Below, piece by piece: positions 7,197 to 24,417 of a DNA stretch of 24,417 bases; positions within the stretch are counted from its first letter, which is position 1; every line of letters begins with the position of its first letter. The notes below the pieces were generated by a model. It ran no database searches and was not told where the DNA came from. It was given only the letters and a program-made list of their open reading frames with translations. A program made the translations under genes and the position numbers. The stretch is from a virus: the UHGV virus genome UHGV-0375912; one strand, written 5' to 3'.

Positions 7197-8270
7197 ATGC
7201 GCCAGGAAACCCGCTTTAAATTTAATGCCTACCTGTCCCGTGTTGCCGAACTGAACGGCATCGACGCCGGTGATGTGTCGAAAAAATTCACCGTTGAACC
7301 GTCGGTCACCCAGACCCTGATGAACACCATGCAGGAGTCCTCTGACTTTCTGACCCGCATCAACATTGTGCCGGTCAGCGAAATGAAAGGGGAAAAAATT
7401 GGTATTGGTGTCACCGGCTCCATCGCCAGCACCACCGACACCGCCGGTGGCACCGAGCGTCAGCCGAAGGACTTCTCGAAGCTGGCGTCAAACAAGTACG
7501 AATGCGACCAGATTAACTTCGATTTTTATATCCGCTACAAAACGCTGGACCTGTGGGCGCGTTATCAGGATTTCCAGCTCCGTGTCCGTAACGCCATTAT
7601 CAAACGCCAGTCCCTTGATTTAATCATGGCCGGTTTTAACGGCGTGAGGCGTGCCGAAACCTCTGACCGCAGCAGTAACCCGATGCTGCAGGATGTGGCG
7701 GTCGGCTGGCTGCAGAAATACCGCAATGAAGCCCCGGCGCGCGTGATGAGCAAGGTCACTGACGAGGAAGGGCACACCACCTCTGAGGTTATCCGCGTGG
7801 GTAAGGGCGGTGATTATGCCAGCCTTGACGCACTGGTGATGGATGCGACCAACAACCTGATTGAACCTTGGTATCAGGAAGACCCTGACCTTGTGGTGAT
7901 TGTGGGGCGTCAGCTACTGGCGGACAAGTATTTCCCCATCGTCAATAAGGAGCAGGACAACAGCGAAATGCTGGCCGCTGACGTCATCATCAGCCAGAAA
8001 CGCATCGGTAACCTGCCGGCGGTACGCGTCCCGTACTTCCCGGCGGATGCGATGCTCATCACGAAGCTGGAAAACCTGTCCATCTACTACATGGATGACA
8101 GCCATCGCCGCGTGATTGAGGAAAACCCGAAACTCGACCGCGTGGAGAACTACGAGTCAATGAACATTGATTACGTGGTGGAAGACTACGCCGCCGGTTG
8201 TCTGGTGGAAAAAATCAAGGTCGGTGATTTCTCCACACCGGCTAAGGCGACCGCAGAGCCGGGAGCGTAA
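7197..8270 (+). CDS. N: Major capsid protein (P2 gpN-like)
   Basis: 357-aa ORF near-identical to P2 gpN. Confidence 0.95.
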   Translation: MRQETRFKFNAYLSRVAELNGIDAGDVSKKFTVEPSVTQTLMNTMQESSDFLTRINIVPVSEMKGEKIGIGVTGSIASTTDTAGGTERQPKDFSKLASNKYECDQINFDFYIRYKTLDLWARYQDFQLRVRNAIIKRQSLDLIMAGFNGVRRAETSDRSSNPMLQDVAVGWLQKYRNEAPARVMSKVTDEEGHTTSEVIRVGKGGDYASLDALVMDATNNLIEPWYQEDPDLVVIVGRQLLADKYFPIVNKEQDNSEMLAADVIISQKRIGNLPAVRVPYFPADAMLITKLENLSIYYMDDSHRRVIEENPKLDRVENYESMNIDYVVEDYAAGCLVEKIKVGDFSTPAKATAEPGA

Positions 8271-8273
8271 CCG

Positions 8274-9017
8274 ATGACGAGTCCCGCACAGCGCCACATG
8301 ATGCGGGTCTCGGCAGCGATGACCGCGCAGCGGGAAGCCGCCCCGCTGCGACATGCAACTGTCTATGAGCAGATGCTGGTTAAGCTCGCCGCAGACCAGC
8401 GCACACTGAAAGCGATTTATTCAAAAGAGCTTAAGGCCGCGAAAAAACGCGAACTGCTGCCGTTCTGGTTGCCGTGGGTGAACGGCGTGCTGGAGCAGGG
8501 CAAAGGTGCACAGGATGACATTCTGATGACGGTCATGCTGTGGCGTCTGGATACCGGCGATATTGCCGGTGCGCTGGAGATTGCCCGTTATGCCCTGAAG
8601 TACGGTCTGACCATGCCGGGTAAACACCGCCGCACCCCGCCGTACATGTTCACCGAGGAGGTGGCGCTTGCGGCCATGCGTGCTCACGCTGCCGGTGAGT
8701 CTGTGGATACCCGCCTGCTGACGGAGACCCTTGAACTGACCGCCACGGCTGACATGCCTGATGAAGTGCGCGCAAAGCTGCACAAAATCACCGGTCTGTT
8801 TCTGCGTGACGGTGGTGATGCCGCCGGTGCGCTGGCTCACCTGCAACGTGCGACACAGCTCGACTGTCAGGCAGGCGTCAAAAAAGAGATTGAACGACTG
8901 GAGCGGGAGCTGAAACCGAAGCCGGAGCCGCAGCCCAAAGCGGCCACCCGTACCCCGCGTAAGACCCGGAGCGTGACACCGGCAAAACGTGGACGCCCGA
9001 AAAAGAAAGCCAGTTAA
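8274..9017 (+). CDS. M: Terminase small/endonuclease subunit (P2 gpM-like)
   Basis: 247-aa ORF directly after N; basic Lys/Arg-rich C-terminal tail. Confidence 0.9.
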   Translation: MTSPAQRHMMRVSAAMTAQREAAPLRHATVYEQMLVKLAADQRTLKAIYSKELKAAKKRELLPFWLPWVNGVLEQGKGAQDDILMTVMLWRLDTGDIAGALEIARYALKYGLTMPGKHRRTPPYMFTEEVALAAMRAHAAGESVDTRLLTETLELTATADMPDEVRAKLHKITGLFLRDGGDAAGALAHLQRATQLDCQAGVKKEIERLERELKPKPEPQPKAATRTPRKTRSVTPAKRGRPKKKAS

Positions 9018-9116
9018 CAACCGAATGCGCCCCGCGCCAGGGCGGCACGCCGGTCAGTGAGGGTGAATCACCTGACGCTGTACCGGCGTCCACCGCCCGA
9101 CTTTTCAGAGGTAGTC

Positions 9117-9626
9117 ATGATGACGCTGATTATTCCGCGAAAGGAGGCTCCCGTGTCCGGTGAGGGTACGGTGGTCATCCCGCAACCGGCAGGCGACGAG
9201 CCGGTGATTAAAAACACGTTCTTTTTTCCCGATATCGACCCGAAGCGCGTCCGGGAACGTATGCGCCTTGAGCAGACCGTCGCCCCCGCCCGTCTGCGTG
9301 AGGCCATCAAGTCAGGCATGGCGGAGACGAATGCGGAGCTGTACGAGTACCGCGAACAGAAAATTGCCGCCGGTTTTACGCGTCTGGCGGACGTCCCGGC
9401 GGACGACATCGACGGTGAAAGCATCAAGGTTTTTTACTACGAGCGCGCCGTGTGTGCGATGGCGACCGCGTCGCTTTATGAGCGTTATCGCGGCGTGGAT
9501 GCCAGTGCGAAAGGCGACAAAAAGGCCGACAGCATAGACAGCACCATTGATGAGCTGTGGCGGGATATGCGCTGGGCGGTGGCGCGTATCCAGGACAAGC
9601 CGCGCTGCATCGTGAGTCAAATCTGA
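9117..9626 (+). CDS. L: Head completion/stabilisation protein (P2 gpL-like)
   Basis: ORF track starts at 9057; start taken at ATG 9117 (MMTLIIPRK...) with an AGAGG RBS 6 nt upstream; stop overlaps the X start (ATGA). Confidence 0.85.
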   Translation: MMTLIIPRKEAPVSGEGTVVIPQPAGDEPVIKNTFFFPDIDPKRVRERMRLEQTVAPARLREAIKSGMAETNAELYEYREQKIAAGFTRLADVPADDIDGESIKVFYYERAVCAMATASLYERYRGVDASAKGDKKADSIDSTIDELWRDMRWAVARIQDKPRCIVSQI

Positions 9627-9829
9627 TGAAGACCTTTGCGCTACAGGGCGACACGCTCGACGCCATTTGTGTCCGGTATTACGGGCGCACTGAGGGCGTG
9701 GTTGAGACCGTGCTCGCCGCAAATCCGGGACTGTCTGAACTGGGTGCGGTGCTGCCACACGGCACCGCCGTCGAACTGCCCGACGTTCAGACCGCGCCCG
9801 TGGCTGAAACTGTCAATCTGTGGGAGTAA
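9626..9829 (+). CDS. X: Tail protein X (P2 gpX-like)
   Basis: MKTFALQGDTLDAICVRYYGRTEGVVETVLAANPGL... 67 aa, taken from the internal start of the 9557-9829 frame. Confidence 0.9.
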   Translation: MKTFALQGDTLDAICVRYYGRTEGVVETVLAANPGLSELGAVLPHGTAVELPDVQTAPVAETVNLWE

Positions 9830-9832
9830 CGC

Positions 9833-10114
9833 ATGACAGCAGAAGAAAAAAGCGTCCTGTCGCTTTTCATGATTGGGGTGCTGATTGTTGTCGGCAAGGT
9901 GCTTGCCGGTGGTGAACCCATCACCCCGCGTCTGTTTATCGGGCGCATGTTGCTCGGTGGTTTTGTCTCGATGGTTGCCGGTGTTGTTCTGGTGCAGTTT
10001 CCTGACCTGTCACTGCCTGCGGTGTGCGGCATCGGCTCCATGCTGGGTATCGCCGGTTATCAGGTGATTGAGATTGCCATTCAGCGCCGTTTTAAGGGCA
10101 GGGGGAAACCGTAA
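9833..10114 (+). CDS. Y: Holin (P2 gpY-like)
   Basis: 93 aa with hydrophobic transmembrane segments and basic C-terminus; first gene of the lysis cassette. Confidence 0.9.
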   Translation: MTAEEKSVLSLFMIGVLIVVGKVLAGGEPITPRLFIGRMLLGGFVSMVAGVVLVQFPDLSLPAVCGIGSMLGIAGYQVIEIAIQRRFKGRGKP

Positions 10115-10611
10115 TGCCGGTAATTAACACGCACCAGAATATCGCCGCCTTTCTCGACATGCTGGCCGTGTCCGAAGGGACGGCGAATCATCCGCTGACG
10201 AAAAACCGGGGCTATGACGTGATAGTCACCGGACTGGACGGGAAGCCGGAAATTTTCACCGACTACAGTGACCACCCGTTCGCGCATGGCCGACCGACGA
10301 AGGTGTTTAACCGTCGCGGTGAAAAATCCACGGCCTCCGGTCGCTATCAGCAGCTTTACCTGTTCTGGCCGCATTACCGCAAACAGCTTGCCCTGCCGGA
10401 TTTCAGTCCGTTGTCACAGGACAGACTCGCCATTCAGTTGATCCGCGAACGCGGTGCGCTGGATGACATCCGGGCGGGGCGCATTGAGCGCGCCATTTCA
10501 CGCTGTCGCAATATCTGGGCGTCCCTGCCGGGTGCCGGTTACGGTCAGCGTGAGCATTCACTGGAAAAACTGGTCACCGTCTGGCGTACCGCCGGCGGCG
10601 TACCGGCTTAA
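10114..10611 (+). CDS. K: Endolysin (P2 gpK-like)
   Basis: 165-aa ORF overlapping the Y stop; matches P2 gpK. Confidence 0.9.
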   Translation: MPVINTHQNIAAFLDMLAVSEGTANHPLTKNRGYDVIVTGLDGKPEIFTDYSDHPFAHGRPTKVFNRRGEKSTASGRYQQLYLFWPHYRKQLALPDFSPLSQDRLAIQLIRERGALDDIRAGRIERAISRCRNIWASLPGAGYGQREHSLEKLVTVWRTAGGVPA

Positions 10612-10625
10612 ACGGAGTAAACACC

Positions 10626-11051
10626 ATGAAGAAATTATCCCTTTCACTGACGCTGAACGTGTCGCTGGCGCTGATGCTGGCACTGTCCCTGATTTACCCG
10701 CAGAGCGTGGCCGTTAATTTTGTCGCCGCCTGGGCGATTATGGCGACGGTTATCTGTGTGGTTGCCGGTGGTGTCGGCGTGTATGCCACGGAGTATGTAC
10801 TGGAACGCTACGGGCGGGAGCTGCCGCCGGAATCGCTGGCCGTGAAGATTGTCACGTCGCTGTTTTTGCAGCCGGTGCCGTGGCGCAGACGGGCGGCGGC
10901 TCTGGTAGTGATGGTGGCGACGTTTATCTCGCTGGTCGCTGCCGGGTGGATTTTTACTGCGCTGATTTATCTCGTGGCGTCGCTGTTTTTCCGGCTGATA
11001 CGCACGGCCTGCCGTCAGCGTCTTGAGGGGCGGGAACTATGTCAAAGCTGA
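10626..11051 (+). CDS. lysA: Lysis accessory membrane protein LysA
   Basis: 141 aa, multiple hydrophobic segments, position after K as in P2. Confidence 0.8.
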   Translation: MKKLSLSLTLNVSLALMLALSLIYPQSVAVNFVAAWAIMATVICVVAGGVGVYATEYVLERYGRELPPESLAVKIVTSLFLQPVPWRRRAAALVVMVATFISLVAAGWIFTALIYLVASLFFRLIRTACRQRLEGRELCQS

Positions 11052-11464
11052 TGATTGCACTGGTCGTGTTGTTATCGCTGGCGGTGGCGGGGCTGTTTCT
11101 GGCGAAGCATGAAAACGCCAGACTGCGCGCCTCACTGGACAGGGCGAACAACGTCGCCAGTGAACAGCAGGCGACTATCTCCATGCTGAAAAATCAGCTT
11201 CATGTTGCCCTCTCAAGGGCAGACAAAAACGAGCTGGCGCAGGTGGCACTGCGTCAGGAACTGGAGAACGCCGCGAAGCGTGAAGCACAGCGCGAGAAAA
11301 CCATCACGAGGTTACTCAATGAAAACGAAGATTTTCGCCGCTGGTATGGTGCTGACCTGCCTGATGCTGTGCGCCGGTTGCACCAGCGCCCCGCATGCAC
11401 CGACGCCAGTGATTGTCGCCAACGCCTGCCCGAAAGTGAGCCTTTGCCCGATGCCGGGCAGTGA
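11039..11464 (+). CDS. lysB: LysB, Rz-like inner-membrane spanin
   Basis: 141 aa, N-terminal transmembrane segment then coiled-coil-like charged region. Confidence 0.8.
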   Translation: MSKLMIALVVLLSLAVAGLFLAKHENARLRASLDRANNVASEQQATISMLKNQLHVALSRADKNELAQVALRQELENAAKREAQREKTITRLLNENEDFRRWYGADLPDAVRRLHQRPACTDASDCRQRLPESEPLPDAGQ

Positions 11465-11609
11465 TCCGCAGACGAACGGCGATTTAAGTGCCGATATCCG
11501 GCAGCTTGAGAACGCGCTGGCACGCTGTGCCAGCCAGGTAAAAATGATTAAACACTGTCAGGACGAAAACGATGCTCAAACCCGACAGCCTGCGCAGGGC
11601 GCTGACTGA
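11319..11609 (+). CDS. lysC: LysC, Rz1-like outer-membrane lipoprotein spanin, nested in the +1 frame of lysB
   Basis: 96 aa from MKTKIFAAGMVLTCLMLCAGC (lipobox LCAGC); taken from the internal start of the 11202-11609 frame. Confidence 0.75.
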   Translation: MKTKIFAAGMVLTCLMLCAGCTSAPHAPTPVIVANACPKVSLCPMPGSDPQTNGDLSADIRQLENALARCASQVKMIKHCQDENDAQTRQPAQGAD

Positions 11610-12039
11610 TGCCGTCACGGTGCTGAAAACCAGTCCAGAGATGCTTCGGATATTCGTGGATAACGGGAGTATTGCCTCCACGCTGGCGACGTCGCTGTCG
11701 TTCGAAAAGCGTTACACGCTCAATGTGATTGTGACCGACTTTACCGGTGATTTTGACCTGCTCATCGTGCCGGTGCTGGCGTGGCTGCGGGAAAATCAGC
11801 CCGACATCATGACCACCGACGAAGGCCAGAAAAAGGGCTTCACGTTTTATGCAGACATCAACAATGACAGCAGCTTTGATATCAGCATCAGTCTGATGCT
11901 GACCGAGCGCACGCTGGTCAGCGAGGTTGATGGTGCGCTGCATGTGAAGAATATCCCGGAACCCCCGCCGCCGGAGCCGGTCACCCGCCCGGTGGAGCTT
12001 TATATCAATGGCGAACTGGTGAGCAAGTGGGATGAATGA
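11572..12039 (+). CDS. R: Tail completion protein R
   Basis: 155-aa ORF matching P2 gpR. Confidence 0.9.
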   Translation: MLKPDSLRRALTDAVTVLKTSPEMLRIFVDNGSIASTLATSLSFEKRYTLNVIVTDFTGDFDLLIVPVLAWLRENQPDIMTTDEGQKKGFTFYADINNDSSFDISISLMLTERTLVSEVDGALHVKNIPEPPPPEPVTRPVELYINGELVSKWDE

Positions 12040-12484
12040 GTTTAAGCGTTTTGAAGACCGGCTGACCGGACTGATTGAATCGCTGTCACCGTCAGGGCGT
12101 CGGCGACTGAGTGCCGAACTGGCGAAACGTCTGCGTCAGAGTCAGCAGCGTCGGGTGATGGCACAGAAAGCCCCGGACGGCACACCCTACGCGCCACGTC
12201 AGCAGCAGAGCGCCAGAAAAAAGACCGGTCGCGTTAAGCGAAAAATGTTTGCGAAACTTATCACCAGTCGTTTTTTGCATATCCGCGCCAGCCCTGAACA
12301 GGCATCAATGGAGTTTTACGGCGGAAAGTCACCGAAAATCGCCAGTGTGCATCAGTTTGGTCTGTCGGAAGAAAACCGGAAGGACGGTAAGAAAATTGAT
12401 TATCCGGCGCGTCCTCTGCTCGGCTTTACCGGTGAGGATGTGCAGATGATTGAAGAGATTATCCTGGCTCACCTCGACCGTTAG
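12032..12484 (+). CDS. S: Tail completion protein S
   Basis: 150-aa ORF overlapping the R end; P2 gene order. Confidence 0.9.
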   Translation: MNEFKRFEDRLTGLIESLSPSGRRRLSAELAKRLRQSQQRRVMAQKAPDGTPYAPRQQQSARKKTGRVKRKMFAKLITSRFLHIRASPEQASMEFYGGKSPKIASVHQFGLSEENRKDGKKIDYPARPLLGFTGEDVQMIEEIILAHLDR

Positions 12485-12550
12485 TTGTGCCATTCCAGAC
12501 ACCTCATCGTCACATTGCCGCCGGTATGACCCGGCGGCATCCTTCCCGTT
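12485..12550 (+). promoter_or_regulatory. Late promoter region upstream of V; contains AGTTGTGCC (12483-12491) and a GC hairpin (12516-12540)
   Basis: Intergenic region ahead of the V-W-J-I-H-G operon; same TTGTGCC heptamer as upstream of FI. Confidence 0.4.
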
Positions 12551-13186
12551 ATGAACACTCTCGCAAATATTCAGGAACTCGCGCGCGCACTGCGCAACAT
12601 GATCCGCACCGGCATTATCGTCGAAACCGACCTTAACGCCGGTCGCTGCCGTGTGCAGACCGGCGGCATGTGCACCGACTGGCTTCAGTGGCTGACCCAT
12701 CGCGCCGGACGTTCGCGCACATGGTGGGCACCTTCCGTGGGGGAACAGGTGCTGATTCTGGCCGTGGGCGGTGAACTCGACACGGCGTTCGTTCTGCCGG
12801 GGATTTATTCCGGCGATAACCCCGCGCCGTCTGCGTCGGCGGATGCCCTGCATATCCGTTTCCCTGACGGGGCGGTGATTGAATATGAACCCGAAACCAG
12901 TGCACTCACGGTAAGCGGAATTAAAACGGCCAGCGTGACGGCTTCTGATTCTGTTACTGCCACGGTACCGGTGGTCACGGTGAAATCGTCAACCCGTGTC
13001 ACTCTGGACACACCGGAAGTGGTCTGCACTAACAAACTGACTACCGGCACGCTGGAAGTGCAGAAGGGCGGGACGATGCGCGGCAACATTGAACACACCG
13101 GCGGTGAACTCTCATCAAACGGTAAGGTACTGCATACCCACAAACACCCCGGCGACAGCGGCGGCACAACCGGGAGTCCTTTATGA
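12551..13186 (+). CDS. V: Baseplate central spike protein V
   Basis: 211-aa ORF; P2 gene order. Confidence 0.9.
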   Translation: MNTLANIQELARALRNMIRTGIIVETDLNAGRCRVQTGGMCTDWLQWLTHRAGRSRTWWAPSVGEQVLILAVGGELDTAFVLPGIYSGDNPAPSASADALHIRFPDGAVIEYEPETSALTVSGIKTASVTASDSVTATVPVVTVKSSTRVTLDTPEVVCTNKLTTGTLEVQKGGTMRGNIEHTGGELSSNGKVLHTHKHPGDSGGTTGSPL

Positions 13187-13530
13187 CAGCGCGTTATCTC
13201 GGAATGAATCGCAGTGATGGCCTGACGGTCACTGACCTTGAGCATATCAGCCAGAGTATCGGCGATATCCTGCGCACACCGGTCGGCTCACGGGTGATGC
13301 GTCGTGATTACGGCTCGTTGCTGGCGTCAATGATTGACCAGCCGCAGACTCCGGCGCTTGAGTTGCAGATTAAGGTCGCCTGTTACATGGCAGTGCTGAA
13401 ATGGGAACCCCGCGTCACCCTGTCATCCGTCACCACGGCGCGCAGTTTTGACGGGCGAATGACGGTCACGTTAACCGGTCAGCACAACGACACCGGCCAG
13501 CCACTTTCGTTAACCATCCCTGTGAGTTGA
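13183..13530 (+). CDS. W: Baseplate protein W (T4 gp25-like)
   Basis: 115-aa ORF overlapping the V stop. Confidence 0.9.
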   Translation: MTARYLGMNRSDGLTVTDLEHISQSIGDILRTPVGSRVMRRDYGSLLASMIDQPQTPALELQIKVACYMAVLKWEPRVTLSSVTTARSFDGRMTVTLTGQHNDTGQPLSLTIPVS

Positions 13531-13534
13531 AACC

Positions 13535-14443
13535 ATGCCGATTATCGACCTGAACCAGCTACCCGCACCGGATGTGGTCGAGGAGCTGGACTTTGAAACC
13601 ATTCTTGCCGAACGCAAGGCGACACTGATTTCCCTTTACCCGGAAGACCAGCAGGAGGCGGTCGCCCGTACCCTGACGCTGGAATCTGAGCCTCTCGTCA
13701 AACTGCTGGAGGAAAATGCTTATCGTGAGCTTATCTGGCGTCAGCGTGTGAATGAGGCCGCACGGGCGGTGATGCTGGCCTGTGCCGCCGGTAATGACCT
13801 TGATGTGATTGGTGCCAATTACAACACCACGCGCCTGACTATCACCCCGGCAGATGATTCGACCATCCCGCCGACACCGGCAGTGATGGAGTCTGACACC
13901 GATTATCGTCTGCGTATTCAGCAGGCGTTTGAAGGTTTAAGCGTCGCCGGGTCGGTGGGTGCCTATCAGTATCATGGCCGCAGTGCCGACGGGCGTGTCG
14001 CGGATATTTCTGTCACCAGTCCGTCTCCGGCCTGCGTCACTATCTCTGTGCTGTCACGTGAAAATAACGGTGTCGCATCCGAAGACCTGCTGGCCGTGGT
14101 GCGTAACGCCCTGAATGGCGAGGACGTCAGGCCGGTGGCCGACCGCGTGACCGTGCAGTCTGCCGCCATCGTTGAATACCAGATAAACGCCACGCTTTAC
14201 CTTTACCCTGGTCCCGAAAGCGAACCCATCCGCGCTGCCGCCGTGAAAAAACTGGAAGCGTATATCACGGCACAGCACCGGCTGGGGCGCGATATCCGTC
14301 TGTCTGCCATTTATGCCGCTTTGCATGTGGAAGGTGTGCAGCGTGTCGAACTGGCTGCACCGCTGGCTGACATCGTGCTCAACAGTACGCAGGCGTCTTT
14401 CTGTACCGAATACAGCGTCGTGACCGGAGGCTCGGATGAGTGA
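13535..14443 (+). CDS. J: Baseplate wedge protein J
   Basis: 302-aa ORF; P2 gene order. Confidence 0.9.
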   Translation: MPIIDLNQLPAPDVVEELDFETILAERKATLISLYPEDQQEAVARTLTLESEPLVKLLEENAYRELIWRQRVNEAARAVMLACAAGNDLDVIGANYNTTRLTITPADDSTIPPTPAVMESDTDYRLRIQQAFEGLSVAGSVGAYQYHGRSADGRVADISVTSPSPACVTISVLSRENNGVASEDLLAVVRNALNGEDVRPVADRVTVQSAAIVEYQINATLYLYPGPESEPIRAAAVKKLEAYITAQHRLGRDIRLSAIYAALHVEGVQRVELAAPLADIVLNSTQASFCTEYSVVTGGSDE

Positions 14444-15047
14444 TTCGCGACTGCTGCCGACCGGCTCATCACTGCTTGAAGTTGCCGCCGCAAAAGCCTG
14501 TGCGGAAATTGAAAAAACGCCGGTCAGTATTCGTGAGCTGTGGAACCCGGACACCTGCCCGGCAAATCTGCTGCCGTGGCTGGCGTGGTCATTTTCGGTT
14601 GACCGCTGGGATGATAAATGGCCGGAAGCGACAAAACGCGCTGTTATCCGCGATGCGTATTTCATTCACTGCCATAAGGGCACTATAGGCGCAATCCGGC
14701 GTGTGGTGGAGCCGCTCGGCTATCTGATTGAGGTGAGGGAGTGGTGGCAGCTCAACGAGGAGCCGGGGACGTTCCGTATCGTTGTTGGCGTGCTTGAGCA
14801 GGGTATTACCGAAGAAATGTATCAGGAGCTGGAGCGCCTAGTTGCTGATGCAAAACCGGCAAGCCGCCATCTGACGGGACTGGCTATCAGTTTAAGTACA
14901 ACCGGCAACATTTTTGCCGGTGCGGGATGCTATCACGGTGACGCCCTGACGGTTTATCCCTACACCCCGGAGGCCATTATTGTCGGAGGGGATTATTTCC
15001 CGGCCTCGGCCATTCATTTAATTGATAACCTGAGAGTAAACGCATGA
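14436..15047 (+). CDS. I: Baseplate protein I
   Basis: 203-aa ORF overlapping the J and H ends. Confidence 0.85.
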
Positions 15048-16204
15048 CAGTGAAATACTACGCCATTCTGACTAATCAGGGCGCAGCACGGCTGGCTAAC
15101 GCGACGATGCTCGGCAGTAAGCTGAATCTGACGCAAATGGCCGTTGGTGATGCGAATGGTGTCTTGCCGACACCAGACCCGGCACAGACAAAACTGATTA
15201 ACCAGAAACGCATCGCGCCGCTGAATCTTCTGAGTGTTGACCCGAACAACCAGAGCCAGATTATTGCGGAGCAAATCATCCCTGAGAACGAGGGCGGATT
15301 CTGGATCCGTGAGATTGGGCTTTATGATGATGAAGGCGTACTCATTGCGGTGGCGAACTGCCCGGAAACGTACAAACCGCAGTTGCAGGAAGGCAGTGGT
15401 CGTACCCAGACTATCCGCATGATTCTGGTTGTCACGAATACCGAAGCTATCACGCTGAAAATCGACCCGTCGGTGGTACTGGCGACCCGTAAATACGTGG
15501 ATGATGAAGTCCTGGAATTAAGGCTGTATGTGGATGACCAGATGAGAAACCACATTGCCGCACAGGATCCTCATACCCAGTATGCGCAGAAACATAATCC
15601 GACATTTACCGGAGAACCAAAAGCGCCGACGCCTGCCGCAGGAAATAACACCACGCGGATTGCGACCACTGCGTTTGTTCAGGCCGCTATTACCGCTCTG
15701 ATTAACGGTGCGCCAGCCACGCTGGACACACTGAAAGAAATTGCCGCAGCCATTAACAATGACCCGAAATTCAGTACCACCATTAACAATGCGCTGTCAG
15801 GTAAGCAGCCACTGGATGAGACGCTGACTCATTTGAGTGGAAAGGATGTAGCTGGTCTTCTCGCATACCTTGGTTTGGGAGAAGCGGCAAAACGGAATGT
15901 GGGAACAGGGGAAAATCAGATACCTGATATGTCATCATATGCATCAGGTTCAGGCTGGCGAAAAATGCCAGATGGTTCAATTGAACAGTGGGGACGAATT
16001 AGTTTTCCTGGTGAACACGGGCCTGTATCCGCCAATGTTTCATTCCCGATTCCATTTACACAGACACCGGGCATTGTAATTGTGTGCGATGGTGGTTTCG
16101 GGGGCGGGAATATGTGGGGGGCGACCAACTGGAGCACTACCGGCTTCATAGCTCACTGCAATTATGGTCTTGAAGGTGGTGCGTTTTTCGCTAAGGGCTG
16201 GTAA
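15044..16204 (+). CDS. H: Tail fibre protein H: conserved N-terminal part plus the currently expressed variable C-terminal tip
   Basis: N-terminal region resembles P2 gpH; C-terminal about 110 aa begin exactly at the 26-bp inversion site (LGLGE junction); 386 aa against 669 in P2. Confidence 0.85.
15858..15883. repeat. Inversion crossover site 1 (hix/gix-like 26-bp dyad TTCTCGCATACC-TT-GGTTTGGGAGAA) inside H
   Basis: Two 12-bp half-sites in inverted orientation around a 2-bp core; inner half-site identical, in inverse orientation, to that of site 2. Confidence 0.7.
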
Positions 16205-16647
16205 TGATGAAATATCTGTACGTAAACAACCTGGCATATCCTTACGAACTTCAGTCTCTTTATGTTGAAAAAGGTGAATGGCCTGAAGAAAAAGGTGTTG
16301 ATATAGACGAAGTAATTTTCAGGGAATATTTCTATGACACACCACCAGAAGGAAAATACAGATGTGTTGGAGAAGATGGACTGCCTGCATGGGCAGATAT
16401 TCCTCCACCAACACGTGAAGAACAAATTGCATCAGCCGAAACTAAAAAGCAGCAATTGATTAATCAGGCCAACGATTATATGAACAGTAGACAATGGGTT
16501 GGTAAAGCGGCTATTGGTCGTCTGAAAGGTGAGGAACTGGCGCAATATAATTTGTGGCTGGATTATCTGGACGCACTGGAGCTGGTCGATACTTCCAGTG
16601 CACCAGATATTGAATGGCCTACTCCTCCGGCAGTTCAGGCCAGATGA
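16204..16647 (+). CDS. G: Tail fibre assembly protein G (chaperone for the current H tip)
   Basis: 147 aa with the conserved Tfa C-terminal region (...YNLWLDYLDALELVDTSSAPDIEWP). Confidence 0.85.
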   Translation: MMKYLYVNNLAYPYELQSLYVEKGEWPEEKGVDIDEVIFREYFYDTPPEGKYRCVGEDGLPAWADIPPPTREEQIASAETKKQQLINQANDYMNSRQWVGKAAIGRLKGEELAQYNLWLDYLDALELVDTSSAPDIEWPTPPAVQAR

Positions 16648-17230
16648 CATCCGGCGCGGTGCTGGTATCTGTTGCCGTCACCGCGTCAATGTAATCCAGC
16701 ACCGTGTTAAGTCGGCTGGTTTCTGCCTGCGTCAGATTCCGTCCGGCCCGTAATTTCAGTTGAATCAGACTGATGGAAGCCATTGCAGTATCAATCAGCG
16801 ACTGGCGTTGTGCTTCTGCTGCATCTACTGCGGCGCTATGCTGTGCATCGGTATCCGTCACCCATTTCTCACCATCCCATTTATCGTATGGTGTTAACGG
16901 GGCGATAGTGGTTGTATTATCAGGGTAATCACCCGGAGCTGTGATTTCTTTTGATTCTCCTGTTTCGGTGCTAAAGACGATTTCACCGCGATGGTCTGGC
17001 ACATATTCCCATGAGTTAAAATCTGCAGAACGGCAGATTGCATAACCAGCCTTATGTGTAACTGGTGCATCTAAACAAGAACATGCCGGGATACCGACGC
17101 CAACCGTAAGATATTCAGTTGATGTGGAAATATATTCCCGCGTTTCTCCGTTGTAGTTGTAAACGGTAATGAAGCCAGCCTCTGTGGCAAATCCGTTTTC
17201 ATCCAAAGTGATTTTTTTTGTGGTCATCAT
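16619..17230 (-). CDS. Alternative tail fibre assembly protein (inverted cassette)
   Basis: 203 aa with Tfa-type C-terminus (...LNTVLDYIDAVTATDTSTAPDVIWPELPEE); 3' end overlaps the G 3' end by 29 bp, convergent. Confidence 0.8.
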   Translation of the reverse strand: MMTTKKITLDENGFATEAGFITVYNYNGETREYISTSTEYLTVGVGIPACSCLDAPVTHKAGYAICRSADFNSWEYVPDHRGEIVFSTETGESKEITAPGDYPDNTTTIAPLTPYDKWDGEKWVTDTDAQHSAAVDAAEAQRQSLIDTAMASISLIQLKLRAGRNLTQAETSRLNTVLDYIDAVTATDTSTAPDVIWPELPEE

Positions 17231-17742
17231 GCTGCCCTTACAATGTAGTTAAATGCAATGTTACGTGGCCTTGTTTCTGCTGATGTTCTTGCACTCCTGG
17301 ATAAATCAAGTGTCACACCATAGTAACTAAATGCATTACCAGTTGATGGAGCGGCATATTTAACCCCAGAACTAGAACCAACATTAAAAACTCCAGATGC
17401 TGAGGAAGCTGACCCCATAGTGTTATCAATCAGAGAACCCGTAACATTTTGCATAGCGTCAAGTTGTTCGCTTAATAAAGCGCGTCCACTATCAACATCA
17501 CGCCCGTCATCCCAGCCACGAATAAATTCACCTCGTAAATCAGGCAATTTATTTGTCGGATAAGCCTTTGCCAGTTCCGGGTATTCTTCAGCAGAAAAAA
17601 ACGCACCGTTGCATTTCAGCCAGCCTGTTGGCGGAGTGGTGGAAGGCCACGGAACAGGCACGCCAACGGGTAATGCCGAACCTTCTCCCAAACCAACGTT
17701 TAAGAAAATGCAGAGATTACGGCTAACATGATAGTCACTCAT
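17227..17742 (-). CDS. Alternative tail fibre variable tip (inverted cassette); as called, fused in frame to an inverted copy of the FI start codon and RBS
   Basis: Fibre-tip-like sequence (PVPWPSTTPPTGWLKCNGAFFSAEEYPELAKAYP...RGEFIRGWDDGRD); the variable part begins at site 2 (LNVGLGE), but the ORF starts at ATG 17742 (MSDYH) preceded by GGAG. Confidence 0.6.
   Translation of the reverse strand: MSDYHVSRNLCIFLNVGLGEGSALPVGVPVPWPSTTPPTGWLKCNGAFFSAEEYPELAKAYPTNKLPDLRGEFIRGWDDGRDVDSGRALLSEQLDAMQNVTGSLIDNTMGSASSASGVFNVGSSSGVKYAAPSTGNAFSYYGVTLDLSRSARTSAETRPRNIAFNYIVRAA
17683..17708. repeat. Inversion crossover site 2 (TTCTCCCAAACC-AA-CGTTTAAGAAAA)
   Basis: hix/gix-like 26-bp site in inverted orientation to site 1; shares 17 bp (TTGGTTTGGGAGAAG region) with it. 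Confidence 0.7.
17728..17742 (-). other. Inverted copy of the FI translation start (ATGAGTGACTATCAT = MSDYH) with GGAG RBS at 17750-17753
   Basis: Reverse complement of the plus-strand 15-mer encodes the expected P2 FI N-terminus; flipping 17728-17829 joins it in frame to the FI body at 17830. Confidence 0.6.
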
Positions 17743-17829
17743 CCGTTTAACTCCGTGGTTAATGGGTGAGTGATATTTTCAGTTGTGCCGGAGATGTCAG
17801 GCTATTTGTCCCGGTTGGCTAAGGGATGA

Positions 17830-19005
17830 CACAATTTATTCTTTGTCGCTATTAACGACGGCACCCGTGTCATTTCCACCGTATCCACTGCCATTGTTGG
17901 CATGGTCTGCACGGCCAGCGATGCGGATGCGGAAACCTTCCCCCTCAATAAACCGGTGCTGATTACCAATGTGCAGAGCGCAATTGCAAAGGCCGGTAAA
18001 AAAGGCACGCTGGCGGCATCGTTGCAGGCTATCGCCGACCAGTCAAAACCGGTCACCGTTGTTGTGCGCGTGGAGGACGGCACCGGCGACGACGAAGAAA
18101 CGAAACTTGCGCAGACCGTTTCCAATATCATCGGCACCACTGACGAAAACGGTCAGTACACCGGACTGAAAGCCCTGCTGGCGGCAGAGTCGGTAACCGG
18201 TGTTAAACCGCGTATTCTTGGTGTGCCGGGACTGGATACCAAAGAGGTGGCTGTAGCACTAGCATCCGTCTGTCAGAAGCTGCGCGCTTTCGGGTATATC
18301 AGCGCATGGGGCTGTAAGACCATTTCCGAGGTGAAAGCCTACCGCCAGAATTTCAGCCAGCGTGAGCTGATGGTCATCTGGCCGGATTTCCTCGCATGGG
18401 ATACGGTCACCAGTACCACCGCCACCGCGTATGCCACCGCTCGTGCGCTGGGGCTGCGCGCTAAAATCGACCAGGAGCAGGGCTGGCATAAAACGCTGTC
18501 CAACGTCGGGGTGAACGGTGTTACCGGCATCAGCGCATCTGTATTCTGGGATTTGCAGGAGTCCGGCACCGATGCTGACCTGCTTAACGAGTCAGGCGTC
18601 ACTACGCTGATTCGCCGCGACGGTTTCCGCTTCTGGGGTAACCGTACCTGCTCTGATGACCCACTGTTTCTCTTTGAAAACTACACCCGTACCGCGCAGG
18701 TGCTGGCCGACACGATAGCTGAGGCGCACATGTGGGCGGTGGACAAGCCCATCACCGCAACGCTGATTCGCGACATCGTTGACGGCATCAATGCCAAATT
18801 CCGTGAGCTGAAAACAAACGGCTATATCGTGGATGGCTCATGCTGGTTCAGCGAAGAATCCAACGATGCGGAAACCCTCAAGGCCGGAAAACTGTATATC
18901 GACTACGACTATACACCGGTGCCTCCTCTCGAAAACCTGACCCTGCGCCAGCGTATTACCGATAAATACCTGGCGAATCTGGTCACCTCGGTTAACAGCA
19001 ATTAA
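17830..19005 (+). CDS. FI: Tail sheath protein FI; coding body without a start codon in this orientation (first in-frame ATG at 17902)
   Basis: Stop-free frame from 17830 encodes [24 protein letters not shown] before Met 17902, matching P2 FI residues 6-29; TGA at 17827-17829 lies immediately upstream. Confidence 0.85.
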   Translation, partial: [391 protein letters not shown]

Positions 19006-19017
19006 GGAGCCTGACCG

Positions 19018-19536
19018 ATGGCAATGCCGCGCAAACTCAAGTTAATGAACGTCTTTCTGAACGGCTACAGCTATCAGGGCGTCGCGAAGTCCGTCACGCT
19101 ACCAAAACTGACCCGTAAGCTCGAAAACTATCGCGGTGCGGGGATGAACGGCAGCGCACCGGTAGACCTCGGCCTTGATGACGATGCGCTGTCAATGGAG
19201 TGGTCGCTCGGTGGCTTCCCGGATTCGGTTATCTGGGAGCTTTACGCCGCAACCGGTGTGGATGCCGTACCGATTCGTTTTGCAGGCTCTTACCAGCGCG
19301 ACGATACCGGCGAAACGGTGGCCGTCGAGGTGGTCATGCGTGGACGTCAGAAAGAAATCGACACCGGCGAGGGTAAACAGGGAGAAGACACCGAGTCGAA
19401 AATCTCCGTGGTCTGCACCTATTTCCTGCTGACGATGGACGGTAAGGAGCTGGTCGAAATTGACACCATCAACATGATTGAGAAGGTGAACGGCGTCGAC
19501 CGGCTGGAGCAACACCGCCGCAATATCGGCCTGTGA
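19018..19536 (+). CDS. FII: Tail tube protein FII
   Basis: 172-aa ORF following FI; P2 gene order. Confidence 0.9.
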   Translation: MAMPRKLKLMNVFLNGYSYQGVAKSVTLPKLTRKLENYRGAGMNGSAPVDLGLDDDALSMEWSLGGFPDSVIWELYAATGVDAVPIRFAGSYQRDDTGETVAVEVVMRGRQKEIDTGEGKQGEDTESKISVVCTYFLLTMDGKELVEIDTINMIEKVNGVDRLEQHRRNIGL

Positions 19537-19591
19537 TTTTCATCCGGTCAGCCAGGCTGACCGGTAACCCCGATTCAGAAGTGAGAAAACC

Positions 19592-19867
19592 ATGAACAAA
19601 GAAAATGTCATTACCCTGGACAATCCGGTCAAACGTGGTGAGCAGGTTATCGAACAGGTCACGCTGATGAAACCCAATGCCGGGACGCTGCGCGGTGTCA
19701 GTCTGGCTGCGGTTGCAAACTCCGAAGTCGATGCACTGATTAAAGTGCTGCCGCGCATGACGGCACCGATGCTGACCGAGCAGGAAGTCGCCGCGCTGGA
19801 ACTGCCTGACCTTGTGGCGCTGGCCGGTAAGGTGGTCGGTTTTTTGTCGCCGAACTCGGTGCAGTGA
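19592..19867 (+). CDS. E: Tail assembly chaperone E
   Basis: 91-aa ORF between FII and T. Confidence 0.85.
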   Translation: MNKENVITLDNPVKRGEQVIEQVTLMKPNAGTLRGVSLAAVANSEVDALIKVLPRMTAPMLTEQEVAALELPDLVALAGKVVGFLSPNSVQ

Positions 19868-20019
19868 CGTTCCCGAAAAATCTCTCGGTCGATGACCTGA
19901 TGGCGGATGTGGCAGTGATATTTCACTGGCCGCCATCAGAACTGTATCCCATGAGCCTGACCGAACTCATCACATGGCGCGAAAAGGCGCTCCGGCGAAG
20001 CGGAAACACGAATGAGTAA
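19592..20019 (+). CDS. E+E': E+E' frameshift product (programmed -1 frameshift, lambda G/GT-like)
   Basis: Slippery heptamer T_TTT_TTG at 19840-19846 in the E frame; the -1 frame is open from 19846 to TAA at 20017-20019, giving about 142 aa and overlapping the T start. Confidence 0.7.
19840..19846 (+). promoter_or_regulatory. -1 ribosomal frameshift slippery site TTTTTTG
   Basis: X_XXY_YYZ heptamer 6 codons before the E stop. Confidence 0.65.
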
Positions 20020-22459
20020 CAATGTAAAATTACAGGTATTGCTCAGGGCTGTTGACCAGGCATCCCGCCCGTTTAAATCCATCCGCACAGCGAGCAAATC
20101 GCTGTCGGGGGATATCCGGGAAACACAAAAATCACTGCGCGAGCTGAACGGTCAGGCGTCCCGTATTGAGGGATTTCGCAAGACCAGTGCACAGCTCGCC
20201 GTGACTGGTCATGCACTTGAAAAGGCACGGCAGGAGGCTGAAGCCCTTGCCACACAGTTTAAAAACACCGAACGTCCGACCCGTGCTCAGGCGAAAGTGC
20301 TGGAATCCGCAAAGCGTGCGGCGGAGGACTTACAGGCGAAATATAACCGCCTGACGGATTCCGTTAAACGCCAGCAGCGGGAACTGGCCGCTGTGGGAAT
20401 TAATACCCGCAATCTTGCACATGATGAGCAGGGACTGAAAAACCGTATCAGTGAAACCACCGCACAGCTTAACCGTCAGCGCGACGCGCTGGCGCGTGTC
20501 AGTGCGCAACAGGCAAAACTTAACGCAGTCAAACAGCGTTATCAGGCCGGAAAGGAACTGGCCGGAAATATGGCCTCGGTGGGCGCTGCCGGTGTGGGGA
20601 TTGCGGCGGCGGGAACGATGGCCGGAGTTAAGCTGCTGATGCCCGGTTATGAGTTTGCGCAGAAAAACTCAGAATTGCAGGCCGTGCTCGGAGTGGCAAA
20701 AGACTCCGCCGAAATGACCGCACTACGCAAACAGGCGCGCCAGCTCGGCGACAATACCGCCGCCTCGGCGGATGATGCGGCCGGTGCACAGATAATCATC
20801 GCGAAAGCGGGTGGGGATGTTGATGCCATTCAGGCGGCAACGCCGGTCACGCTGAATATGGCGCTGGCGAACCGCCGCACGATGGAAGAAAACGCCGCCC
20901 TGCTGATGGGGATGAAATCCGCCTTTCAGCTTTCAAACGATAAGGTCGCTCATATCGGGGATGTTCTCTCCATGACGATGAACAAAACCGCCGCCGATTT
21001 TGACGGCATGAGCGATGCGCTGACCTATGCCGCACCTGTGGCAAAAAATGCCGGTGTCAGCATTGAAGAAACCGCCGCAATGGTCGGGGCGCTGCATGAT
21101 GCAAAAATCACAGGCTCAATGGCGGGGACGGGAAGCCGTGCCGTGTTAAGCCGCCTGCAGGCACCGACGGGAAAAGCATGGGATGCACTCAAAGAGCTTG
21201 GCGTGAAAACCTCAGACAGCAAGGGAAACACCCGGCCAATATTTACCATTCTGAAAGAAATGCAGGCCAGTTTTGAGAAAAACCGGCTCGGTACTGCCCA
21301 GCAGGCTGAATACATGAAAACTATTTTCGGGGAGGAGGCCAGCTCAGCCGCCGCCGTGCTGATGACTGCCGCCTCAACCGGAAAGCTGGACAAACTGACC
21401 GCTGCGTTTAAAGCCTCAGACGGGAAGACCGCCGAGCTGGTAAATATCATGCAGGACAACCTAGGCGGTGACTTTAAAGAGTTTCAGTCCGCTTATGAGG
21501 CAGTGGGGACTGACCTGTTTGACCAGCAGGAAGGCGCGCTGCGTAAGCTCACGCAGACGGCCACAAAGTATGTGTTAAAACTCGACGGCTGGATCCAGAA
21601 AAACAAATCACTGGCGTCAACCATCGGCATCATTGCCGGTGGCGCGCTGGCGCTGACTGGCATCATCGGTGCCATTGGCCTCGTAGCCTGGCCGGTTATC
21701 ACCGGCATCAATGCCATCATCGCGGCAGCAGGCGCAATGGGGGCAGTCTTCACGACGGTTGGCAGTGCTGTTATGACCGCCATCGGGGCTATTAGCTGGC
21801 CGGTTGTGGCCGTGGTGGCCGCAATTGTCACCGGGGCGTTGCTTATCCGTAAATACTGGGAGCCTGTCAGCGCATTCTTTGGCGGTGTGGTTGAAGGGCT
21901 GAAAGTGGCATTTGCGCCGGTGGGGGAACTGTTCACGCCACTTAAGCCGGTGTTTGACTGGCTGGGTGAAAAGTTACAGGCCGCGTGGCAGTGGTTTAAA
22001 AACCTGATTGCTCCGGTCAAAGCCACTCAGGACACCCTGAACAGTTGCCGTGACACGGGGGGCATGTTCGGGCAGGCACTGGCTGACGCGCTGATGCTGC
22101 CGCTTAATGCGTTCAACAAACTGCGCAGCGGTATTGACTGGGTACTGGAAAAACTCGGTGTTATCAACAAAGAGTCAGACACACTTGACCAGACCGCCGC
22201 CAGAACTCAAGCCGCCACGTATGGCAGCGGTGGTTATATTCCGGCGACCAGCTCTTATGCAGGCTATCAGGCTTATCAGCCGGTCACGGCACCGGCTGGC
22301 CGCTCTTATGTGGACCAGAGTAAAAACGAATATCACATCAGCCTGACGGGTGGTACTGCGCCGGGGACACAGCTTGACCGCCAGTTACAGGATGCGCTCG
22401 AAAAATACGAGCGGGATAAACGTGCGCGCGCCCGTGCCAGCATGATGCATGACGGTTAA
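20012..22459 (+). CDS. T: Tail tape measure protein T
   Basis: 815-aa ORF with coiled-coil N-terminus and Gly/Ala-rich hydrophobic region; P2 gene order. Confidence 0.9.
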   Translation: MSNNVKLQVLLRAVDQASRPFKSIRTASKSLSGDIRETQKSLRELNGQASRIEGFRKTSAQLAVTGHALEKARQEAEALATQFKNTERPTRAQAKVLESAKRAAEDLQAKYNRLTDSVKRQQRELAAVGINTRNLAHDEQGLKNRISETTAQLNRQRDALARVSAQQAKLNAVKQRYQAGKELAGNMASVGAAGVGIAAAGTMAGVKLLMPGYEFAQKNSELQAVLGVAKDSAEMTALRKQARQLGDNTAASADDAAGAQIIIAKAGGDVDAIQAATPVTLNMALANRRTMEENAALLMGMKSAFQLSNDKVAHIGDVLSMTMNKTAADFDGMSDALTYAAPVAKNAGVSIEETAAMVGALHDAKITGSMAGTGSRAVLSRLQAPTGKAWDALKELGVKTSDSKGNTRPIFTILKEMQASFEKNRLGTAQQAEYMKTIFGEEASSAAAVLMTAASTGKLDKLTAAFKASDGKTAELVNIMQDNLGGDFKEFQSAYEAVGTDLFDQQEGALRKLTQTATKYVLKLDGWIQKNKSLASTIGIIAGGALALTGIIGAIGLVAWPVITGINAIIAAAGAMGAVFTTVGSAVMTAIGAISWPVVAVVAAIVTGALLIRKYWEPVSAFFGGVVEGLKVAFAPVGELFTPLKPVFDWLGEKLQAAWQWFKNLIAPVKATQDTLNSCRDTGGMFGQALADALMLPLNAFNKLRSGIDWVLEKLGVINKESDTLDQTAARTQAATYGSGGYIPATSSYAGYQAYQPVTAPAGRSYVDQSKNEYHISLTGGTAPGTQLDRQLQDALEKYERDKRARARASMMHDG

Positions 22460-22473
22460 GGAGGTGACGAAAA

Positions 22474-22953
22474 ATGATGCTCGCGTTAGGTATGTTTGTT
22501 TTTATGCGCCAGACGCTGCCACACCAGACCATGCAGCGTGAATCAGATTATCGCTGGCCGTCAAATTCCCGTATCGGTAAACGGGATGCCTACCAGTTTC
22601 TCGGTGTGGGTGAGGAAAACATGACGCTTGCCGGCGTGCTTTATCCCGAACTGACCGGCGGGAAGCTGACGATGACCACGCTCAGGCTGATGGCAGAGGA
22701 AGGCCGGGCGTGGCCGTTGCTGGATGGCACCGGCATGATTTACGGCATGTATGTCATCAGCAGGGTGAGTGAAACAGGGAGTATTTTCTTTGCAGACGGC
22801 ACACCCAGAAAAATTGATTTTACGCTGTCGCTCACCCGCGTTGATGAATCACTGGCCGCGCTTTATGGCGATATCGGTAAACAGGCGGAATCGCTCATCG
22901 GTAAAGCTGGCAGTATGGCGACCAGATTCACGGGTATGACGGGGGCGGGATAA
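22474..22953 (+). CDS. U: Tail protein U
   Basis: 159-aa ORF; P2 gene order. Confidence 0.9.
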   Translation: MMLALGMFVFMRQTLPHQTMQRESDYRWPSNSRIGKRDAYQFLGVGEENMTLAGVLYPELTGGKLTMTTLRLMAEEGRAWPLLDGTGMIYGMYVISRVSETGSIFFADGTPRKIDFTLSLTRVDESLAALYGDIGKQAESLIGKAGSMATRFTGMTGAG

Positions 22954-24116
22954 TGCTGGATGCACTGACATTTGATGCAGGCAGTACGCTGACGCCGGAT
23001 TACATGCTGATGCTCGACAGCAGGGATATTACCGGCAATATCAGCGACCGTCTGATGAGCATGACCCTGACGGATAACCGGGGCTTTGAGGCTGACCAGC
23101 TTGATATTGAACTGAACGATGCCGACGGGCAGGTCGGGCTGCCGGTTCGTGGCGCTGTCCTGACGGTGTATATCGGCTGGAAAGGTTTTGCCCTGGTATG
23201 CAAAGGGAAATTTACCGTTGATGAGGTTGAACACCGGGGCGCACCGGATGTGGTCACCATCCGCGCCCGGAGTGCAGATTTTCGCGGGACGCTCAATTCC
23301 CGCCGTGAAGGCTCATGGCATGACACCACGCTCGGTGCGATTGTTGAGGCGATAGCCTCCCGTAATAAGCTGGAAGCCAGTGTCGCGCCGTCACTGGCAG
23401 GAATTAAAATCCCGCACATCGACCAGTCGCAGGAGTCTGATGCGAAATTCCTGACCCGTCTTGCAGAACGCAACGGCGGTGAGGTGTCGGTAAAAATGGG
23501 AAAACTGTTGTTTCTCAAAGCGGGGCAGGGGGTGACGGCCAGCGGTAAAAAAATCCCGCAGATTACCATCACCCGCAGCGACGGCGACCGCCATCATTTT
23601 GCGATTGCTGACCGTGGAGCCTATACCGGCGTAACGGCAAAGTGGTTACACACCAAAGACCCGAAGCCACAAAAGCAGAAGGTAAAACTGAAACGCAAAA
23701 AGAAAGAGAAACACCTGCGCGCACTGGAGCACCCGAAAGCGAAACCAGTCACGCAGAAGAAAGCGCCAAAAGTACCGGAAGCGCGCGAAGGTGAATACAT
23801 GGCAGGTGAGGCTGACAACGTTTTTGCCCTGACCACGGTATATGCCACGAAAGCGCAGGCCATGCGCGCCGCTCAGGCGAAGTGGGATAAGCTGCAACGG
23901 GGTGTTGCGGAATTCTCCATCAGTCTGGCTACTGGTCGGGCAGATATTTATACGGAAACGCCGGTCAAAGTGTCAGGCTTTAAGCGCGTCATAGACGAGC
24001 AGGACTGGACAATCACTAAGGTGACACATTTTCTGAATAATAGCGGCTTCACGACGTCCTTAGAGCTTGAGGTCAGGCTTTCTGATGTGGAGTACGAAAC
24101 AGAAGATGATGAATGA
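22953..24116 (+). CDS. D: Tail protein D (late control gene D)
   Basis: 387-aa ORF overlapping the U stop (TAATG). Confidence 0.9.
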   Translation: MLDALTFDAGSTLTPDYMLMLDSRDITGNISDRLMSMTLTDNRGFEADQLDIELNDADGQVGLPVRGAVLTVYIGWKGFALVCKGKFTVDEVEHRGAPDVVTIRARSADFRGTLNSRREGSWHDTTLGAIVEAIASRNKLEASVAPSLAGIKIPHIDQSQESDAKFLTRLAERNGGEVSVKMGKLLFLKAGQGVTASGKKIPQITITRSDGDRHHFAIADRGAYTGVTAKWLHTKDPKPQKQKVKLKRKKKEKHLRALEHPKAKPVTQKKAPKVPEAREGEYMAGEADNVFALTTVYATKAQAMRAAQAKWDKLQRGVAEFSISLATGRADIYTETPVKVSGFKRVIDEQDWTITKVTHFLNNSGFTTSLELEVRLSDVEYETEDDE

Positions 24117-24135
24117 TGTTTTTTATTTTATCTGT

Positions 24136-24164
24136 TTGTTTTATAAGGATAAATTAACTAAAAT
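24136..24164 (+). promoter_or_regulatory. Candidate ogr promoter (TTGTTT - 17 bp - TAAAAT)
   Basis: AT-rich intergenic region between D and ogr; -35 at 24136-24141, -10 at 24159-24164. Confidence 0.35.
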
Positions 24165-24198
24165 GGCACCATCAACAAAACCGGAAGAGGTGCTCGCG

Positions 24199-24417
24199 AT
24201 GTTTCATTGTCCTTTATGCCAGCATGCCGCACATGCGCGTACAAGTCGCTATATCACTGACACGACAAAAGAGCGTTATCACCAGTGCCAGAACGTGAAT
24301 TGCAGCGCCACGTTCATCACTTATGAGTCGGTACAGCGATACATCGTGAAGCCGGGAGAAGTCCACGCCGTAAAACCGCACCCGTTGCCGTCAGGGCAGC
24401 AAATTATGTGGATGTAA
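24199..24417 (+). CDS. ogr: Late gene transcriptional activator Ogr (zinc-finger)
   Basis: 72 aa MFHCPLCQHAAHARTSRYITDTTKERYHQCQNVNCSATF... with Cys4 motif, near-identical to P2 Ogr; ORF track's upstream extension from 24067 rejected. Window ends at its stop codon. Confidence 0.95.
   Translation: MFHCPLCQHAAHARTSRYITDTTKERYHQCQNVNCSATFITYESVQRYIVKPGEVHAVKPHPLPSGQQIMWM

Follow-up and report, generated by a model that had tools for sequence, protein, structure and literature searches.

The start region of the tail sheath gene FI in the virus genome UHGV-0375912, a stretch of 24,417 nucleotides that was analysed at its full length and is called the window below, can be compared with several described systems. 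In the Gin/Cin/Pin/Hin family, to which the Mu G, P1 C and e14 P segments belong, two 26-bp inverted sites bound a segment with alternative tail-fibre C-termini and their chaperones. Strands are exchanged at the central dinucleotide of these sites in a conservative, reciprocal reaction that neither adds nor removes bases, which makes the inversion reversible. In the P2-like variant found in pro483, the invertase gene is placed between the fibre cassette and FI. The fimS/FimBE switch of Escherichia coli type 1 fimbriae involves a promoter segment of about 100 to 300 bp that can lie opposite to the operon it normally drives, and cryptic P2-like E. coli prophages inactivated by insertion sequences (IS) or deletions keep mostly intact late genes with few disabling lesions. 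Finally, the four-point template-switch model (Löytynoja and Goldman; Walker et al. 2021, PMC7954356) includes a 1-3-2-4 type of event, in which the region between points 1 and 4 is replaced by the reverse complement of the internal 3-2 segment (PMC7954356). This model is related to quasipalindrome-associated template switching in E. coli and to fork stalling and template switching/microhomology-mediated break-induced replication (FoSTeS/MMBIR).

The window comprises the late region of a P2-like (Peduovirus) prophage in which 314 bp around the start of FI have been exchanged for the reverse complement of an inner 123 bp of the same region. As a sequence feature this lesion is to be taken as real and as ordinary in kind; FI is not, on this reading of the DNA, a phase-variable sheath gene. 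We tentatively attribute the lesion to template switching in a decaying prophage, an explanation to which we give nearly an even chance.

Structure of the rearrangement

The closest match to the window was the prophage of the E. coli ST131 strain MNCRE44 (NZ_CP010876.1), with 99.99-100% identity; the coordinates of this prophage locus, L005, served as the ancestral reference. The window departs from it by a flipped invertible segment, an ISEc12 insertion at the left end and the FI lesion, and otherwise by 3 substitutions in 24 kb. Window positions 294-15884 correspond to L005 3187-18777 with one mismatch and positions 15867-17699 to the reverse complement of L005 18760-20592 with two. To the right of these, 17682-17727 is identical to L005 20575-20620, 17728-17850 to the reverse complement of L005 20791-20913 (100% over 123 bp, E = 5e-59) and 17851-24417 to L005 20935-27501. 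Concatenation of L005 20575-20620, the reverse complement of 20791-20913 and 20935-27501 gave a string exactly identical to window 17682-24417. The ancestor would thus have matched the MNCRE44 prophage, in the order invertible segment, crossover site 2, invertase remnant, PF late promoter, ribosome-binding site (RBS) and FI.

The 314 bp that were replaced (L005 20621-20934) held the invertase pseudogene remnant, PF, the RBS and FI codons 1-12. The inverted block (17728-17850, minus strand) preserves the last 49 bp of the invertase gene (17802-17850; 16 codons plus stop), which is all that the window retains of it, the 59-bp intergenic leader and FI codons 1-5, and carries the PF promoter. Missing are 170 bp of the invertase remnant on the left and, on the right, the 21 bp that encode FI codons 6-12 (HGVQVLE). 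Because sequence was lost at both edges, the change is neither conservative nor reversible, and judging from what is left, flipping the present block back cannot restore FI. The preliminary description of this DNA had placed the inversion at 17728-17829, 102 bp in length; its left edge agrees with ours, whereas the true block extends to 17850.

The left junction J1 (17727/17728), where the ancestral tggcatcatcc… gives way to atgatagtcac…, is separated from crossover site 2 by 19 bp of retained ancestral sequence on the plus strand (17709-17727). The right junction J2 lies at 17850/17851. Both are blunt, with 0 bp of microhomology each, and neither falls in repeated sequence. No inverted repeats were found at the edges of 17728-17850, nor was a quasipalindrome already present at the junctions. 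An imperfect inverted pair of 11 nt (17753-17763 / 17851-17861) abuts J2 and is at chance level among 19 such pairs in 600 bp; likewise, an ATCAT-like motif near three of the four ancestral breakpoints was judged not meaningful.

The ancestral, MNCRE44-type junction was present in 362 of 5,426 complete E. coli genomes and the window junction in none of them. When a 241-bp query spanning the junctions was searched against the same genomes, the best matches covered exactly 17728-17850 and ended at both edges. Megablast found no match to the window junctions in INPHARED phages, and the exact junction patterns had none in IMG/VR, GTDB representative genomes or Joint Genome Institute (JGI) metagenomes. 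In the phages pro483 and Wphi, PF, RBS and ATG are all in sense orientation. From this distribution the window arrangement is to be regarded as derived.

Consequences for the sheath gene and its promoter

In the window, the FI frame is preceded by a TGA at 17827-17829; it opens at 17830, and its first possible start codon (ATG, GTG or TTG) is the ATG at 17902, as was noticed at the outset. The first five codons (ATG AGT GAC TAT CAT, MSDYH) lie on the minus strand at 17742-17728, the reverse complement of 17728-17742 being ATGAGTGACTATCAT, and the GGAG of the RBS lies 8 nt upstream of the inverted ATG (17751-17754, minus strand). This GGAG is invariant in MNCRE44, pro483 and Wphi, and the FI starts of the same three agree with the P2 FI N-terminus given in the preliminary description. 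The FI body (17851-19005, plus strand) resumes at codon 13 with ATT AAC GAC. The 21 bases before it, 17830-17850, are the reverse complement of the 3' end of the invertase gene (…SSATKNKLCH…; the remnant open reading frame (ORF) in MNCRE44 ends with …SSATKNKLCHPLANRDK and a stop) and read on the plus strand as a spurious HNLFFVA. A diverged FI N-terminus had been considered for this heptapeptide and was rejected, the identity to the reverse-complemented invertase end being 100%.

These 21 bases also explain why re-inversion of the shorter segment had seemed to rebuild a complete protein of 396 residues. By coincidence, 21 bases derived from the invertase stand in for the 21 lost FI bases, so that the reconstruction came to the expected length; its product would be a chimaera in which FI codons 6-12 are absent. 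If the true 123-bp block is flipped instead, the product reads MSDYH-INDG… and lacks seven residues. Thus a native FI N-terminus with a start codon and RBS in sense orientation is found in neither arrangement of the present DNA.

The first in-frame ATG of FI (17902, Met30) has no Shine-Dalgarno sequence. The 367-residue ORF that begins there contains the sheath domains PF22671, PF04984 and PF17482. FI residues 4-30 align with the pyocin sheath PA0622 (PDB 3J9Q) and are conserved, and FI started at Met30 would lose N-terminal residues conserved with this R-pyocin sheath. According to what Ge and co-workers are said to have found in 2015, the N-terminal arm of the sheath takes part in an inter-subunit mesh. 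Production of a functional sheath would be impossible from such a gene, and FI is here best annotated as a pseudogene.

An exact-protein look-up with the truncated 367-residue FI returned one match, on a Logan contig of sample SRR13867090 (L003, 1,408 bp) that is 100% identical to window 17901-19308. This contig begins one base before the codon of Met30, and its gene call is the 367-residue truncated product. The contig break probably stems from a second P2-like prophage in that sample; as the contig stops short of the junctions, it is uninformative about them.

With respect to transcription, P2 has four Ogr-dependent late promoters with the consensus TGT-N12-ACA, the Ogr element being situated about 55 bp upstream of the transcription start, and one of these promoters, PF, drives FI FII E E' T U D (PMC3931495). 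No perfect TGT-N12-ACA was found in the whole 24.4-kb window, where about 6 would be expected by chance, and one mismatch was allowed in the search for Ogr boxes. The predicted box of PF then lies at 17816-17833 on the minus strand (TGTGTCATCCCTTAGCCA, TGT-N12-CCA) and matches the late-promoter element at five of six positions. The PP/PO box at window 6180-6197 (TGTGTCAGTGATAAGCCA, TGT-N12-CCA) shares this form, and in the functional phage Wphi the aligned sequence upstream of FI is TGTTTCATCCACTGACCA. The heptamer TTGTGCC (17783-17789), first taken for a late-promoter-like element carried by the segment, is not the Ogr box, and a right-hand boundary at 17829 would cut through the real one. 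In its present orientation the predicted box faces leftwards, away from FI; no PF in sense orientation precedes FI, and the FI-FII-E-E'-T-U-D tail operon would be left without its promoter. A scan for sigma-70 promoters and terminators revealed nothing relevant near the lesion.

In general, this phage has late-promoter boxes that depart from the consensus by one mismatch; a candidate in the PV region (12486-12503) ends in ACC. The PF box itself sits inside the C-terminal coding sequence of the invertase.

Origin of the inverted replacement

A promoter-bearing block that points away from its operon, directly beside a DNA inversion system, invites comparison with a programmed switch. The neighbouring segment at 15867-17699 is a canonical Gin/Pin-type invertible tail-fibre segment: it has two 26-bp inverted sites, alternative fibre C-termini and chaperones, it lies in the opposite orientation to that in MNCRE44, and both orientations occur among near-identical prophages. 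In the MNCRE44 comparison, an identical 18-bp overlap is seen at both of its ends. Crossover site 1 (15858-15883, TTCTCGCATACCTTGGTTTGGGAGAA) is inside gene H, outside the FI lesion, and site 2 (17683-17708, TTCTCCCAAACCAACGTTTAAGAAAA) is undamaged, with its end 19 bp short of the lesion. The proximity of site 2 to J1, together with the flipped segment, which implies that an invertase has acted on this lineage, possibly in trans, would speak for a reversible, recombinase-driven inversion that phase-varies sheath expression, as the preliminary description had proposed for an aberrant product of the Gin-type system. Nearly everything else speaks against it. J1 lies outside site 2, and although the two genuine crossover sites received the highest site-likeness scores in the ancestral locus, none of the four ancestral breakpoints exceeded the 99th percentile (percentiles 0.06-0.96 of background), so that pseudo-sites for the invertase at the breakpoints were rejected. 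No inverted repeats bound the block; with 170 bp and 21 bp lost, native FI is encoded in neither orientation; and the window orientation is absent from all of the 5,426 genomes, as against 362 with the ancestral one. The lesion thus differs from Gin/Cin/Pin/Hin inversions in using other breakpoints, in not being conservative, in lacking flanking repeats and in having removed the remainder of the invertase. It differs from fimS/FimBE in having no bounding inverted repeats and no dedicated recombinase, in the loss of edge sequence, in including coding sequence and in occurring in a single orientation in the databases. We therefore regard a phase-varying switch as near refuted.

The history of the invertase gene bears on the same question. 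In pro483 and many E. coli prophages, a serine invertase gene is found on the plus strand between the silent cassette and FI; that of pro483 (locus L001, 3293-3886), located between site 2 and FI, encodes 197 residues with Resolvase and HTH_7 domains. In MNCRE44 (L005 20657-20839) and LD27-1 (L002 4465-4650), it is reduced to an in-frame mini-ORF of 60 codons, which arose by deletion between two CTGATTTTTGA direct repeats of a full-length gene as in pro483. No cognate invertase gene is found in the window, and only this remnant in its closest relative; an enzyme might have acted in trans. A working invertase gene is thus absent from both the window prophage and the MNCRE44 prophage. Since neither has an enzyme of its own, the flip of the tail-fibre segment was either catalysed in trans or predates the loss of the invertase.

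A single complex event would account for the lesion. In the proposed sequence, synthesis would have run to ancestral position 20620, jumped to the opposite strand at 20913, copied back to 20791 and then returned to the original template at 20935. The points follow the order 1 (20620) < 3 (20791) < 2 (20913) < 4 (20935), which defines the 1-3-2-4 type, and as in the four-point model, the window can be put together at 100% identity from ancestral L→1, reverse-complemented 2→3 and 4→R, in that order. The outcome is likewise that expected of this type, an irreversible replacement of a longer region by its inner reverse complement. As in short-range template switches, the template is within a few hundred nt, the 2→3 source being inside the replaced 314 bp; the copied tract of 123 bp and the replaced region of 314 bp, however, exceed the typical size, and the two FI switch points lack microhomology.

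The same irreversible scar, with the same consequences, might instead have arisen by breakage and rejoining. One route would be excision at double-strand breaks, resection of the ends with loss of 170 bp and 21 bp, and religation of the 123-bp piece backwards, by RecBCD/LigA-dependent alternative end-joining or by gyrase-mediated illegitimate recombination; another would take two steps, in which the stretch from breakpoint a to breakpoint c is first inverted and a single deletion comes later. Blunt junctions without any overlap suit ligation better than primed template switching, and the presence of four ancestral breakpoints, with sequence missing to the left and to the right of the inverted piece, fits as well. 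On the other hand, 314 bp would have had to break at several places at once, or two events would have had to take place independently. E. coli is not known to have a Ku/LigD end-joining pathway. We consider this origin rather unlikely, although the final sequence by itself fails to separate it from a template switch.

A second rearrangement in the window is relevant here. Positions 1-293 are the end of a copy of ISEc12, a member of the IS21 family, which interrupts the replication gene A near its codon 117; gene A resumes at window position 294, and MNCRE44 has it intact. The copy is itself scrambled: 1-107 derive from the interior of istB, 106-207 correspond, in reverse complement, to 102 bp close to the opposite end of the IS, and 206-293 are its terminal 88 bp. 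In all, the copy has lost 2,022 bp; its order is 3-2-1-4, with the 102-bp piece as an inverted filler. Each junction has a 2-bp overlap, and one of them adjoins a 28-bp homology common to both IS ends. The scrambled arrangement was absent from the complete E. coli genomes, and the junction between the IS and gene A had no match in the metagenomes. As read from its fragments, this rearrangement and the FI lesion belong formally to one type of event. Its 2-bp overlaps and the homology alongside look more templated, which counts against breakage and rejoining, and the occurrence of a second event of the same type nearby points to a prophage that accumulates lesions.

Several points weigh against a template-switch scar. 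The lesion is a singleton in all collections searched, with no independent sign of its existence in a living genome. Two rare complex events within 24 kb that otherwise contain 3 substitutions are unusual. The 0 bp of microhomology at both FI junctions contrasts with the few bases that template-switch models usually expect, an expectation of the mechanistic models which the descriptive four-point model does not require. Finally, the immediate ancestor may have carried either the 60-codon remnant or a full-length invertase; had the gene been full-length, the left-hand deletion would be longer by several hundred bp.

The first two of these points, the second sharpened by the near identity of the window to a finished genome and by the formal identity of the two oddities, would equally be expected if the rearrangement were an artefact of sequencing, assembly, amplification or cloning, for instance displacement-amplification chimeras that entered the consensus, and blunt junctions would suit this too. 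An assembly error at a repeat-rich locus had been among the explanations first proposed. In its general form, an artefact is a possible though less probable explanation, which we take seriously; the repeat-induced kind does not hold, as the junctions lie outside repeats and neither repeat collapse nor a graph mis-join can be invoked. The consensus is of very high quality, with 0 differences over 6,567 bp and a single one over 15,591 bp, which argues against low coverage. A chimera with one junction, as is usual, would not suffice either, since each event calls for two chimeric junctions spaced 100-123 bp from each other. The paired events fit either a decaying element gathering structural lesions or a process that generates artefacts.

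Among the causes proposed at the outset, an inactivation scar in a defective prophage is the best supported, and a template switch is the route by which we would tentatively explain it. As in cryptic P2-like prophages, most late genes are intact and the disabling lesions are few, here ISEc12 in gene A and the loss of the FI promoter and start. The scar differs from the usual lesions of cryptic prophages in being an inversion with flanking deletions instead of a plain deletion, frameshift or IS insertion. Late transcription in P2 needs replication as well as Ogr. With ISEc12 in gene A and the lesion in FI, the prophage would be unable to replicate or to build tailed particles, and it should be classed as defective, its gene A being interrupted by an IS as well. 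The practical value of the analysis lies in corrected annotation of the FI pseudogene, the promoterless tail operon and the spurious HNLFFVA. If the rearrangement is real, the window represents one bacterial prophage with two clean inverted templated replacements at the 100-bp scale, a mutation class well described in primate genomes and seldom noted for prophage inactivation. It also illustrates that an inverted replacement beside a genuine invertase system can pass for a programmed invertible promoter.

The fusion reading frame and surrounding genes

By the rearrangement, PF, the RBS and MSDYH were joined in frame ahead of the silent tail-fibre cassette. The resulting fusion ORF of 171 residues (17227-17742, minus strand) consists of MSDYH and the silent alternative tail-fibre C-terminal cassette, which is Sv'-like and has a PF07484 Collar (tail collar) domain (E = 8e-15). 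It starts with MSDYHVSRNLCIF… and has the sequence MSDYHVSRNLCIFLNVGLGEGS…, where the counterpart in LD27-1 begins MMPVSRNLCIF…. The tail-fibre assembly gene (chaperone) of the silent cassette (16619-17230, minus strand; PF02413 Caudo_TAP, E = 1.4e-32) has a start that overlaps the stop of the fusion ORF and would therefore be co-transcribed from the inverted PF. An exact-protein look-up found no record of the 171-residue fusion protein.

An in-frame fusion arises by accident with a chance of one in three, and here it is probably an inert by-product without function. Placement of PF, the FI RBS and MSDYH before a silent receptor-binding cassette and its chaperone could also be viewed as adaptive rewiring instead of neutral decay, a subset of the readings in which the scar is real; we hold this to be very improbable. 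If it were true, the defective prophage could release a free tail-fibre tip, with the late activator coming from a superinfecting P2-like phage or from P4, and this tip could, for example, block receptors or serve as a decoy.

The remaining gene order of the window is, from left to right, portal and terminase, capsid, lysis and baseplate genes, H, a fibre assembly gene, a second assembly gene and the silent cassette, both on the minus strand, and then FI, FII, E, T, U, D and ogr. The tail fibre gene H occupies 15044-16204 and the tail-fibre assembly gene that follows it 16204-16647.

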